Positions 37,555-41,606 of a DNA stretch of 64,000 nucleotides are shown in pieces; position 1 is the stretch's first letter; the number at the start of each line of letters is the position of its first letter. The DNA comes from Bdellovibrionota bacterium (GTDB lineage Bacteria > Bdellovibrionota_C > UBA2361 > OMII01): contig JBIIOE010000005.1 in the NCBI GenBank assembly GCA_044337105.1, positions 84 to 64,083 on the forward strand, in the 5' to 3' direction. Under the pieces are notes generated by a model. That model made no database searches. It had not been told where the DNA came from and saw only the letters and a list, made by a program, of their open reading frames with translations. The translations under genes were made by a program, and so were the position numbers.

Positions 37555-38526
37555 ATGTTCATAGTCACAGGTGGAGCCGGTTTCATAGGAAGCGCTTTCA
37601 TAGCGAAACTCAACTCAGAAGGTATCAAGGATATTCTGGTAGTAGACGAACTCGCGAGTTCGCCGCGCTGGAAAAACCTTATTCGTAAGTCCTTCCGCGA
37701 ATATGTGCACAAGGACCGCTTCTTGGAGATGGTCCGCAGTGGTGCATTACCGGCGTCGGTCGAGGGGATTGTGCACCTCGGAGCCTGCTCAAGTACGACT
37801 GAACGCAACGTCGAATACCTCCTTCAGAACAACTACGAGTACACCAAGACCCTTGCAGAGTACTCCATCAAACATGCCATCCGTTTCGTGTACGCCAGCA
37901 GCGCGGCGACTTATGGCGATGGAGCCCTCGGATACGAGGATGACGAATCTCGCCTGGATCACCTCGCTCCACTCAATGCGTATGGATACTCCAAGCATCT
38001 CTTCGATTTATGGGCTAGGAAGCAGGGGCTTTTTTCTCACGTAGCCGGCTTGAAGTTCTTCAACGTCTACGGCCCAAATGAATACTACAAAGAGGATATG
38101 GCGAGTGTCGTGTGGAAGGCCTTCCATAAAATTCGAGACTCGGGCTCGTTCTCACTCTTCAAATCGTATCGCCCTGAGTACAAGGACGGTGAACAGATGC
38201 GCGACTTCGTCTACGTCAAGGATTGCTGCGACGTAATGTGGTGGCTTCTGAACAACCGCGCCGCCAACGGCCTCTTCAATGTTGGGTCAGGCAAGGCGCG
38301 ACCGTGGAATGACCTCGTGGGGTCCGTATTTAACTCGTTAAAACAGACATCTCAGATAGAGTACATCGAGATGCCGCTCCACCTGCGGGACCAATACCAG
38401 TATTTCACTGAGGCTCCAATGTCGAAGCTGCGAGACGCTGGATTCGAGAAGCCGTTCCACACGCTCGAGGAGGGCATTGAGGACTATGTATCTCAACATC
38501 TACTGAAGAGCGATCCTCACTGGTAG
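37555..38526 (+). CDS. hldD: ADP-L-glycero-D-manno-heptose 6-epimerase
   Basis: TGGAGFIGS, HLGACSST, YASSAATYG, YGYSK and FNVYGPNEYYK. Confidence 0.95.
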   Translation: MFIVTGGAGFIGSAFIAKLNSEGIKDILVVDELASSPRWKNLIRKSFREYVHKDRFLEMVRSGALPASVEGIVHLGACSSTTERNVEYLLQNNYEYTKTLAEYSIKHAIRFVYASSAATYGDGALGYEDDESRLDHLAPLNAYGYSKHLFDLWARKQGLFSHVAGLKFFNVYGPNEYYKEDMASVVWKAFHKIRDSGSFSLFKSYRPEYKDGEQMRDFVYVKDCCDVMWWLLNNRAANGLFNVGSGKARPWNDLVGSVFNSLKQTSQIEYIEMPLHLRDQYQYFTEAPMSKLRDAGFEKPFHTLEEGIEDYVSQHLLKSDPHW

Positions 38527-38753: not shown

Positions 38754-41606
38754 ATGGGAACAGATGCTCAGAACGAAACAGTGCTACGCTTCGATGTTGT
38801 GGTACACGGTGCCTCATACAGGGCCCTTGTAGAGGGGCTGCGTTCACCCCATCTTGCAGGCAAATCCCGTACCTCTCCCCGTAAGCCGGTCAAAGCCGCG
38901 ATAGAGCTCGATCTTCAATCCAAGCAGTATTCTCTCAGCACGATTGGAAGACACAGACTTCCCAAGGGACTACGAGTGCAACCGGGTAGTCGTACCCACT
39001 CCAATCTTACGGGCTATCTAGCATCTCACCTAACAGGAGACACCGCTCGCACCATATCGCACCTTCTGAGCAGCATCATTGAGTCGACCCCCGTTATTCA
39101 CACAGACGCACTGAAGCTGTTCAGGGAAGACATTCAGATTCAAGATCCGACGCGACCTTCGACTGCGAGCCTCCTGTCGCAAAAGGTTTTTGTAGTCGAC
39201 GACATCTCTACTGAAATCTCACTCGATATCGACGATATCCCGACACCCATACTCCCGGAGGTCGAGCGATCTCACCTTGAAGATGCGGTCCAGCATCTCG
39301 AAAGCTCCATAGAGCTCCTAGCGCCCGTGACTGCTAGTGTCGTTGGAAACCTCGTAGAGATCTCGGCTGCCTTACTTCTACCAGTAGAGCTTAGCGCTCA
39401 AACGGAGATCTTTCTGCACTGGGGAAGCTACGAGGAATCGTCGCCACCATGGCAGGACGAGTTGGTCGTTCTTCGGAGCGACCTTTCAGGCTCGCGCCAT
39501 ACGCTGCTCCACCGTCTCCACATCCCCACCCGAGGCAACTACGGGCTTACACTTTTTGCTCAGATAAGGGGAACAACCAAGCCGGTCTGGTTGGGCAGGT
39601 CGTGGGTCGATGACGCGCGCGTCTCGATTGTGGCGGACGACCTCAAGGTTGCCCAGGAGAGAGCTCAAGCTTTTGAAAAGATCCAAGGTGTCGCTCTGAG
39701 AGAGCTATCGCGCTGCATTTCGCTCCAACACGATCCCTCCCAGCGTTGCGAGATGATCGCTGCAGACGCTCCTCATCTAGGGCTTGGCGCGCTCCTCGCT
39801 CAAGCATCGGAGTCCCAGGAAAGCCGGCAACACCTCGCTGCTCTCGCTCAGTCACTTGATCAAGGGAGCAGCCCAAGCGCGCTACTGTCAGCGTTGCTCA
39901 ATTACGGAATCGGCGAGATCGTATTCGCCACCCCGGAAGGACCTCACGCCGCTGCTGGCGGCCTCGCCCAAGTCATCTCGGGCCTTCCTCCGGAACTGTG
40001 CCGGGCTGGCATCCCCGTCACGGTCATCGCCCCCCTGTACTGCAAGGAGAATGGAAATCGGCACACTTCGGCGCAGCAGCTTCTTCGCCATGGAGTAAAG
40101 CTGGGAGGTGAAAAAATCCGCCCGACATTGCTCGGAACAATCTCGGTTCCCTTAGGACCTACGTATCACAGCGGAACGACCTGTGTTCGAAGGCAGCCAG
40201 CCACGATTCCCTTGAAAGTATACCTTGCGCAACGCGGCGCCCTGCGATTGTTTCTTTTGTCCAACTCGTCGGTTTTTGATCGGCTATATCAGCCGGTATT
40301 TTCAGACGAGCAGCTACGCCGCTCGGTCATCCTTTCTCGTGGCGCTCTAGAGCTCATAGCACTACCGCAGTTCGGGATCCGCCCCAGCGCGATCGTTTCG
40401 AATGATTGGATGACTGCGTGCATTCCGCCAATTCTTTCGCTCGATACACGCTATCAGACGACTCCCTGGCTACGCTCCTGCAAAACAATGCACATGATCC
40501 ACAACGGTGGGGCCGATTATCACGGGCGGCTACCCGCTAACTTGAACAACGAAGATCTCTGGCCCCTACTAGGTCTTGCTCCTGAGCATTTCCTCGGATT
40601 TCAAGACCCTCACAACGGAGACCTTCTCAATCTTACAATGGCAGCCACCAGGCACGTGAGTGGAGCCGTTTTGACAGTGAGCCAAACCTACGCAACAGAG
40701 CTTGCCACACCAGGATGCGGCGATGGCCTCGAGTGGAACCTCCTCGACAAACGGGAGCGAGTGTTTGGAATAAGCAACGGAATCAACCGCCCCGAGGTGG
40801 AGCGCTTCTTGTGCGCACTCACGGGACAGCCCAGCCGCTCGTTCACGACGCTCGAGGAGCTCCTTGCTGGAAAGCGCGCTATCCAGACCGAGATCCAGCG
40901 CCGATTCGGACTGAATGCTCGCGAAGATGCGCGCATCATCAGCTTCGTAGGGCGCTTGGCCGAACAGAAGGGACTTAGCTTACTTTCTGGACTCGTTTCG
41001 AACGGAACACACTCGGTGCTCGAGGAGATCCTCATCACCAATCCGGACGTGCAGATCTTGCTAGCTGGTCCCATGACCGACGGAGATAGAGAAGCACGAA
41101 ATTTGAGCGAGTGTCTCGCTTACCTGACTCCGAGGTATCCCGGAAGAATCTGCGCGCACCTCGATTATGTACCACACGCACAAGCTCTCGAGATCATTTT
41201 TGGAAGCACCTTCTTCCTCATGCCATCTCGATTCGAGCCCGGAGGTATTACTCAGCTCGAGGCACTTGCTGCGGGAACCCTGGTGGTCGGCAGACGGGTT
41301 GGGGGCATAGCCGCCACTATCGACAACTACTGCCAAGAAGACGGAACCGGAAGCGGTTTCTTGTGCAACGACTACACTCCAGGTGCCTTTGCGGCAACCG
41401 TTCAGTGGGCACTCGGTAGCACCCGCGATCGCAATGCCTATGGTACCTTGGTGCGCAATGCAGTCGAAGCACGACATGATTGGTCAAGTCGCGTTCCGTT
41501 GTACCGTGCGCTCTTCCAACAGACCCTTCTCGGTCGCGAAGCATGCGCCAGTATGCCGTGGCTTCAGGAAAACATGGGCCACATCCGGCTCTGCGCTATC
41601 TCGTGA
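38754..41606 (+). CDS. glgA: Glycogen/starch synthase (GT5) with a roughly 385-aa N-terminal extension
   Basis: AGGLAQV, NDWMTA, GISNGI, VGRLAEQKG and MPSRFEPGG; extension contains an LHWG motif. Confidence 0.8.
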   Translation: MGTDAQNETVLRFDVVVHGASYRALVEGLRSPHLAGKSRTSPRKPVKAAIELDLQSKQYSLSTIGRHRLPKGLRVQPGSRTHSNLTGYLASHLTGDTARTISHLLSSIIESTPVIHTDALKLFREDIQIQDPTRPSTASLLSQKVFVVDDISTEISLDIDDIPTPILPEVERSHLEDAVQHLESSIELLAPVTASVVGNLVEISAALLLPVELSAQTEIFLHWGSYEESSPPWQDELVVLRSDLSGSRHTLLHRLHIPTRGNYGLTLFAQIRGTTKPVWLGRSWVDDARVSIVADDLKVAQERAQAFEKIQGVALRELSRCISLQHDPSQRCEMIAADAPHLGLGALLAQASESQESRQHLAALAQSLDQGSSPSALLSALLNYGIGEIVFATPEGPHAAAGGLAQVISGLPPELCRAGIPVTVIAPLYCKENGNRHTSAQQLLRHGVKLGGEKIRPTLLGTISVPLGPTYHSGTTCVRRQPATIPLKVYLAQRGALRLFLLSNSSVFDRLYQPVFSDEQLRRSVILSRGALELIALPQFGIRPSAIVSNDWMTACIPPILSLDTRYQTTPWLRSCKTMHMIHNGGADYHGRLPANLNNEDLWPLLGLAPEHFLGFQDPHNGDLLNLTMAATRHVSGAVLTVSQTYATELATPGCGDGLEWNLLDKRERVFGISNGINRPEVERFLCALTGQPSRSFTTLEELLAGKRAIQTEIQRRFGLNAREDARIISFVGRLAEQKGLSLLSGLVSNGTHSVLEEILITNPDVQILLAGPMTDGDREARNLSECLAYLTPRYPGRICAHLDYVPHAQALEIIFGSTFFLMPSRFEPGGITQLEALAAGTLVVGRRVGGIAATIDNYCQEDGTGSGFLCNDYTPGAFAATVQWALGSTRDRNAYGTLVRNAVEARHDWSSRVPLYRALFQQTLLGREACASMPWLQENMGHIRLCAIS

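Follow-up and report, generated by a model that had tools for sequence, protein, structure and literature searches.

A GT5 glycogen synthase family without the KXGGL lysine in Bdellovibrionota and giant Omnitrophota proteins, with a candidate glucan-binding module and a probable preference for UDP-glucose

Bacterial glycogen synthesis is taught as an ADP-glucose-dependent process, with the KXGGL motif as the signature of glycosyltransferase family GT5. Here we describe a GT5 synthase gene that dispenses with the lysine of this motif. The gene lies in a 64,000-nucleotide stretch of DNA (the window; contig JBIIOE010000005.1, positions 84 to 64,083) from the assembly GCA_044337105.1 of an uncultured lake-water Bdellovibrionota bacterium of predatory type, and its open reading frame (ORF) runs uninterrupted through 950 codons. 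Its closest described counterparts are E. coli GlgA and the plant starch synthases. In the structure of AtSSIV with ADP and acarbose, Lys39 of KXGGL and Asp45 each form hydrogen bonds to the ADP ribose hydroxyls, and main-chain amides together with an Arg/Lys pair from the C-terminal domain bind the phosphates (PMC6086201). Prokaryotic GT5 synthases that use UDP-glucose are already known (PMC11046441), so the use of this donor would vary a known scheme without introducing a new one. In the archaeal, Aeromonas, Chlamydia and eukaryotic systems of this kind, GT5 works without ADP-glucose and a UGPase supplies UDP-glucose, the donor that we can only propose for the present enzyme. Those UDP-glucose-using synthases are not known to have lost the loop lysine, unlike the family described here, which by its sequence forms a separate GT5 subfamily, marked by an N-terminal module and a donor loop of its own and common to Bdellovibrionota and Omnitrophota.

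Both parts of a GT5 enzyme were detected, the N-terminal Rossmann domain PF08323 and the GT1-type C-terminal domain PF00534. The full-length AlphaFold model, with a mean predicted local distance difference test score (pLDDT) of 82.6 and a predicted template modelling score (pTM) of 0.77, matched the GT-B fold in Foldseek, giving template modelling (TM) scores of 0.81-0.85 to AtSSIV and E. coli GlgA. Against the GlgA and plant synthase structures 2qzs, 6gne and 4hln, the shared fold comes with 20-23% sequence identity. Common to both groups are Glu828, Arg734 and Lys739, His583, the Asp of the NDW motif (Asp551) and the Gly-Gly of the donor loop. The family differs in having Ala400 and Gln406, an HN motif longer by two residues and an extension of 385 residues, in a genome without GlgC. 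An earlier note on this DNA, made from its letters, had described about 385 extra N-terminal residues containing LHWG, and this holds, as the PF08323 match begins at residue 389. The protein falls well short of the NCBIfam GlgA equivalog models (best score 201.8 bits, cut-off 603) and of TIGR02095 (194.7 bits, cut-off 328).

The donor loop was aligned with HMMER to barley SSI (PYAKSGGLGDV) and rice GBSS (PWSKTGGLGDV), which places Ala400 opposite the KXGGL lysine and Gln406 opposite the Asp of GGLGDV. HAAAGGL in place of KTGGL had been read correctly in the earlier note; residues 398-404 correspond to nucleotides 39945-39965, so that the start given there, 39948, was one codon late. Across 133 family sequences lysine never occurs at the position of Ala400 (Ala in 84, Ile in 27, other residues in 22), and the position of Gln406 is Gln in 121. 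Outgroup GlgAs from the same scan have Lys and Asp together in 35 of 38 cases. Alignments of 25 and of 72 sequences show little or no variation in the loop PEGPHAAAGGLAQV, and the deep branches, at 33-38% identity, read PEGP[HQ]A[IT][AF]GG. Asp551, His583, Arg734, Lys739 and Glu828, equivalent to Asp137, His161, Arg300, Lys305 and Glu377 of E. coli GlgA, are invariant in the 72 sequences, which bears out the earlier observation that the Arg of VGRL, the Lys of QKG and the Glu of FEP remain. Within the HN motif, His583, Asn584, Gly585, Gly586, Asp588, Tyr589, His590 and Gly591 are invariant, and the deep-branch form is HN[CAG]G[RK]DY[QH]G.

Set beside the AtSSIV structure, the family has replaced exactly the two side chains that contact the ribose, and has retained the Gly-Gly and the Arg/Lys clamp. 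We also observed this pair of changes, Lys to Ala and Asp to Gln, in an Anaerolineae GlgA of 498 residues (L053:1004-2497 and L058:1273-2766) that reads YAATGGLAQV and is otherwise canonical, with a normal HNLGYQG. As this GlgA is placed among those of Chloroflexota in the tree, the change there is independent, and the separate appearance of the pair indicates that the two residues act as a unit. The paired replacement supports the view that the hold on the nucleotide ribose has been altered, rather than random drift.

The enzyme belongs to a well-populated family. A word-based search returned about 85 full-length homologues at 41-79% identity, all of about 950 residues and of the same architecture, from the metagenome-assembled genomes of uncultured freshwater Bdellovibrionota. 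A search with the catalytic region (residues 388-950) gave 203 clusters; it was saturated by family members and carries no outgroup information. Over more than 200 clusters the donor loop and the HWG..W..W signature vary little or not at all. DNA of the gene was found only in many lake and freshwater metagenomes, plus two runs labelled fungus metagenome. In a maximum-likelihood (ML) tree of catalytic domains a long branch with an SH-aLRT support of 99 sets the family (55 rows) apart from 38 canonical GlgAs. On this tree the family is a well-separated and previously undescribed GT5 clade made up of Bdellovibrionota enzymes and giant Omnitrophota proteins. We rejected decay into a pseudogene: the frame is intact, homologues as distant as 33% identity are still conserved, and none of the catalytic residues varies. 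The earlier note had named an inactive and decaying enzyme as one outcome that would overturn its proposal, and family-wide conservation rules out the decay.

This raised the question of which nucleotide sugar is available to the enzyme. No glgC, glgB, glgX or glgP is present in the window, as noted earlier, and in the genome (3.8 Mb, 96% complete) GH13 genes are found only on contig C24 and the phosphorylase on C213. The genome has no GlgC (best TIGR02091 match 35 bits, cut-off 425) and no GalU. The glucose-1-phosphate nucleotidylyltransferases that it does carry are RmlA, an RmlA-like protein with an N-terminal extension, and RfbF. The RmlA-like protein (C67:632-1804) scores 205 bits to TIGR01207, below the cut-off, and its extension comprises 125 residues. 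A eukaryote-type UGPase is encoded at C156:11508-12767 (L098:5401-6867), with 401 bits to PF01704 and 315 bits to the T. brucei UGP; in the PDB it matches best the enzymes of T. brucei, Leishmania, plants, yeast and human, and no PF01704 UGPase was found in 14 control prokaryote genomes.

The branching enzyme (C24:43664-45685; L099:7665-9683) is likewise of the GH13_8/GBE1 type, scoring 705 bits to human GBE1 and 177 to bacterial GlgB. It is accompanied by an alpha-glucan phosphorylase of the TIGR02094 type, above cut-off, and by one additional GH13 protein. These partner enzymes point to branched glycogen as the likely product. A genome search for a canonical glgA and glgC returned the long synthase as the only GT5-type synthase, and no GlgC. 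A second GT5 gene was considered and rejected, the other PF08323 matches being a GT4-like protein on C145 and an ordinary GT4 on C207, neither of them GlgA. The GT4-like glycosyltransferase (C145:5297-6724; L002:1498-2925) has 476 residues, an N-terminus reading GWEYPPHIAGGLGTAC and a low-complexity insert, and its gene adjoins a glucokinase. Its best PDB match is the maltose-1-phosphate synthase GlgM (84 bits), and the related genome G031 has an orthologue of 41% identity (L096:2757-4076, minus strand) at a distance of 3 kb from the long synthase. The protein may take part in the same alpha-glucan pathway as the synthase.

The distribution of these genes across the order is consistent with this picture. 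The classical GlgC-GlgA pathway is not represented, with GlgC above cut-off in none of 41 genomes (our own and 40 relatives). Within the genus, the synthase and the UGPase are each present in 22 of 24 genomes and the branching enzyme in 20. Among 16 other families of the order, G031 and G037 carry all three genes and most carry none; the synthase of G031 has a UGPase-like gene about 6 kb away. These profiles point to UDP-glucose as the donor that would be available.

The extension in front of the catalytic domain gave zero Pfam matches over the first 385 residues, and nothing usable came from Pfam, NCBIfam or PDB searches of the N-terminus, the last by single sequence and by profile. When residues 1-387 were modelled alone with AlphaFold2 (mean pLDDT 74.6), the extension resolved into an alpha/beta domain, a disordered stretch, a confident beta-sandwich with pLDDT of about 90, exceeding 90 in places, and five helices. 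Trp223, Gly224, Tyr226, Trp233, Gly261, Gly264, Trp279 and Asp287 of the sandwich are invariant. HWG is invariant or nearly so across the family, and Trp223, Gly224, Tyr226, Trp233 and Trp279 stay invariant in homologues down to 33% identity.

An exhaustive search of 1.84 billion representative proteins with a profile of 37 sandwich sequences matched only 61 clusters, nearly all of them ahead of GT5 domains. In every GT5 protein examined, giant proteins of 2,000-7,100 residues included, some 100 residues separate the sandwich from the GT5 domain that follows it, and every full-length match with a recognisable GT5 domain bears the donor loop of the family. A weaker match (E 4e-4) led to P0143, a 755-residue pullulanase-type fragment from an ENA metagenome with a signal peptide, Pullulanase_N2 and CBM48. 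It contains four or more unclassified modules in tandem, each of about 125 residues, which bear the signature F[L]HWDGF..W..YG[FY]T and are akin to the HWG sandwich; these tandem modules are a candidate new carbohydrate-binding module (CBM) family. With three invariant tryptophans and a distribution almost confined to alpha-glucan enzymes, the sandwich behaves, as far as its sequence can tell, like a starch- or glycogen-binding module.

The earlier note had called this module CBM45-like. CBM45 is known only from GWD1 and AMY3, has no solved structure and bears a conserved HWG/A motif whose tryptophan is reported to bind glucan (PMC12458248). The lead was reasonable, given that this motif marks CBM45 and that LHWG, with Trp223 and Gly224 invariant, fits it; the two modules also resemble one another in their conserved tryptophans, their predicted sandwich and their position N-terminal to an alpha-glucan enzyme. 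AlphaFold bore out the part of the proposal that places a beta-sandwich of the starch-binding-domain type at the HWG region, but not the assignment to CBM45, and we found no sequence link to GWD1 or AMY3. The sandwich could still be a true and very divergent CBM45 sharing ancestry with the plastid modules, an idea compatible with the fold comparison because no CBM45 structure exists; we consider it unlikely. One of the 37 members touched PF23166, the Ig-like model of the GWD1 N-terminus, at E 0.18, a value to be expected by chance among 37 queries. The exhaustive profile detected no homology: among its 61 matches, the 15 checked with Pfam included none built like a dikinase or an alpha-amylase, and no protein of GWD or AMY3 type appeared among those examined. 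The family also has one sandwich copy in a bacterial protein of cytoplasmic type, in contrast to the tandem modules of GWD1 and AMY3. Motifs of the HxG..W type are found in other starch-binding families too.

The best matches of the N-terminal model among solved structures in Foldseek were instead to CBM21, that of PTG/PPP1R3C (7qfa, 7qm2) and of PPP1R3B (2eef), several with beta-cyclodextrin bound. CBM21 modules bind glycogen and cyclodextrin; however, the identity is 11-14%, the conserved residues differ, and Pfam CBM_21 gave no match even at E 10. The sandwich is best described as an unclassified starch-binding-domain-like module. In its general plan the protein resembles plant SSIII and SSIV, which likewise place a long non-catalytic region with a CBM-type sandwich and helices ahead of GT5. 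The extensions have no detectable sequence homology, and SSIII carries three CBM53 modules where the family has one unclassified domain; the plant enzymes retain KXGGL and use ADP-glucose, whereas the family lacks the lysine. The resemblance to plant starch synthases suggested earlier is thus one of architecture and not of close kinship.

The same combination of HWG sandwich, connector and lysine-less GT5 was found in eight giant proteins of 2,500-7,100 residues (P0091, P0102, P0110, P0118, P0120, P0127, P0130 and P0135), two of which are annotated as Candidatus Omnitrophota glycogen/starch synthase. In the ML tree the giants form one clade nested in the family. Additional domains were detected in P0091 (PEP-utilizers_C) and P0135 (metallo-beta-lactamase). 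GT5 domains are common in the giant Omnitrophota 'Archaeovorins' of unknown role (bioRxiv 10.1101/2023.11.21.568195). The three-part module is the same in both settings, embedded in 2,000-7,000 residues there and free-standing in a protein of 950 residues here.

With confidence only a little above even, we favour the view that the gene encodes an active, retaining GT5 alpha-1,4-glucan (glycogen) synthase that is probably UDP-glucose-dependent and carries its own glucan-binding module. The C-terminal 560 residues have the ordinary GT-B build of two Rossmann domains and keep the acid/base and phosphate-binding residues, and in the loop that closes over the nucleotide sugar both side chains that in canonical enzymes hold the ADP ribose have been exchanged together for Ala and Gln. 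Glucose would most likely be taken from UDP-glucose, because the lineage is without GlgC and the eukaryote-type UGPase is the only recognisable source of UDP-glucose. The sandwich would most likely hold the growing or a pre-existing glucan beside the active site by way of a rigid helical connector, and such tethering would raise the local acceptor concentration and perhaps the processivity. Chains would then be branched by the GBE1-like enzyme and degraded by the alpha-glucan phosphorylase, with branched glycogen as the presumed carbon store. Altered donor use, as the earlier note proposed, is plausible in an order without GlgC where the two ribose contacts are replaced and a UGPase co-occurs; the granule targeting and priming role that it proposed as well are not supported.

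Several observations weigh against this view. The stacking aromatic residue is retained as Tyr805, which hand alignment pairs with E. coli Tyr355, and this leaves room for a purine nucleotide. The lysine is present in archaeal and chlamydial GT5 enzymes able to use UDP-glucose, and its loss is therefore unnecessary for the use of this donor. The genome also makes dTDP-glucose and CDP-glucose, which are possible donors, and we found no GlgX, GDE-type debranching enzyme or GH77 amylomaltase in it. Outside the genus the profiles are imperfect, with the synthase alone in G029, the UGPase alone in G033 and the branching enzyme alone in G036, and the co-occurrence of the three genes is confounded by phylogeny. 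The structural match to CBM21 is weak (E 1e-4, TM 0.44-0.57), with generic Ig-like folds ranking next, and the HWG/GT5 module occurs also in giant Omnitrophota proteins. No RNA runs containing the gene were found. A literature search on glycogen metabolism in Bdellovibrionota returned nothing relevant.

It is possible, though improbable in our view, that the protein is an ordinary ADP-glucose-dependent synthase in which the loop change is neutral or compensated, with ADP-glucose supplied in a way that escaped recognition, for instance by a promiscuous RmlA-like enzyme or by uptake from prey. The GT5 fold and the nucleotide-binding residues of the C-terminal domain are conserved, the RmlA-like protein with its 125-residue extension could be such a source, and Furukawa et al. 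reportedly found that Lys15 mutants of the E. coli enzyme retain kcat. GlgC is nevertheless missing from all 41 genomes, the UGPase co-occurs with the synthase, and both ribose contacts have not only been replaced but then long held invariant.

We give a similarly low probability to a role outside storage, in which the enzyme would make a surface or secreted alpha-glucan, or a glycoconjugate, tied to predation. The same module is present in giant, partly extracellular Omnitrophota proteins, in keeping with the frequency of GT5 in 'Archaeovorins' (bioRxiv 10.1101/2023.11.21.568195), and Aeromonas exports a surface glucan made by GlgA (PMC11046441). Neighbours concerned with envelope sugars are also conserved (an epimerase, a GT-C and a GT2), with the HldD-like epimerase upstream in 23 loci. 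This synteny, however, is general collinearity that is lost in the deep branches, the sequence shows neither a signal peptide nor a transmembrane segment at the N-terminus of the synthase, and co-occurrence with a branching enzyme and a phosphorylase is a hallmark of storage glycogen. Least probable is a catalytically dead pseudo-synthase acting as a glucan-binding scaffold or regulator, for although the hallmark lysine is missing and all NCBIfam GlgA models score far below cut-off, the remaining catalytic residues are invariant over deep divergence, this is the sole GT5-type synthase in a genome that retains a branching enzyme and a phosphorylase, and the loop Gly-Gly, which matters more than the lysine for kcat in E. 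coli, is invariant.

What the analysis describes is a large and conserved GT5 clade that dispenses with both the lysine and its partner Asp, in lineages that lack GlgC and have a eukaryote-type UGPase and branching enzyme. Should UDP-glucose prove to be the donor, this clade would be a natural experiment in nucleotide selection by GT5, and would offer both a candidate new starch- or glycogen-binding module, on which a CBM family could be founded, and a first way into the function of the enigmatic GT5 domains in giant Omnitrophota proteins. The family is relevant, too, to the storage of prey-derived carbon in predatory bacteria. More tentatively, and with considerably more doubt than belief, we suggest that Bdellovibrionota and Omnitrophota, as predatory or epibiotic lineages, share a private UDP-glucose alpha-glucan module, consisting of a new CBM, the connector and a lysine-less GT5, together with the eukaryote-type UGPase and GBE1-type enzyme. 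In Omnitrophota this module would reside inside giant predation-associated proteins, and it could be a counterpart or relative of the eukaryotic UDP-glucose GT5 synthases.

The features of the gene are collected in Table 1. Directly upstream, at 37555-38526 of the window, lies a gene for an NAD-dependent HldD-like epimerase, an adjacency repeated in 23 related loci that is probably general collinearity and not a functional link. An operon context was rejected, the HldD-like epimerase, DUF2071, EamA, SNase and Cu-ATPase genes being conserved only through general collinearity in the clade and none of them being a glycogen gene. ADP-heptose, the sugar nucleotide suggested by the adjacent epimerase, was also dropped as a donor, as the adjacency is lost in the deep branches and its anomeric configuration would be wrong for a retaining alpha-glucan synthase.

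Table 1. Features of the synthase gene, with nucleotide positions in the window
Feature	Position	Strand	Basis
Whole gene, GT5 synthase of the HWG/lysine-less subfamily	38754..41606	+	950-residue ORF, ATG start
N-terminal alpha/beta domain, residues 9-111	38778..39086	+	Predicted strands and helices, pLDDT ~60-75
Linker, residues 113-169, probably disordered	39090..39260	+	pLDDT <50 in both models
Beta-sandwich, starch-binding-domain-like, residues 186-296	39309..39641	+	pLDDT 85-95; Foldseek CBM21 matches
LHWG motif, residues 221-224	39414..39425	+	Sequence reading
Helical connector between sandwich and catalytic domain, residues 297-382	39642..39899	+	Five helices, pLDDT ~90
GT5 N-terminal Rossmann domain, PF08323, residues 389-662	39918..40739	+	Pfam E 2.9e-30
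Donor loop PEGPHAAAGGLAQV, residues 394-407	39933..39974	+	Alignment to SSI and GBSS
HNGGADYHGR, residues 583-592	40500..40529	+	Counterpart of the HNxxYQG acceptor/donor motif, two residues longer
GT-B C-terminal nucleotide-binding domain, PF00534, residues 717-897	40902..41444	+	Pfam E 3.7e-15; structural match
VGRLAEQKG, residues 732-740	40947..40973	+	Arg734/Lys739 phosphate-binding pair (E. coli R300/K305); aligned to SSI FIGRLDYQKG
SRFEPGG, residues 825-831	41226..41246	+	Catalytic Glu828 (E. coli E377); aligned to PSRFEPCGL of SSI/GBSS

The remaining parts of the extension are less uniform across the family. The connector is partly deleted in P0080, P0082 and P0083. The N-terminal alpha/beta domain has the conserved motifs LRFEI, LGRHRLP and PGSRTH, and is absent or different in deep-branch members; the first 170 or so residues are, to judge from the alignments, specific to the genus-level clade. 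Within the linker we observed a conserved LDLDDxPTL patch, in which Asp160, Pro163, Thr164 and Leu165 are almost invariant, and which could be a short linear interaction motif.

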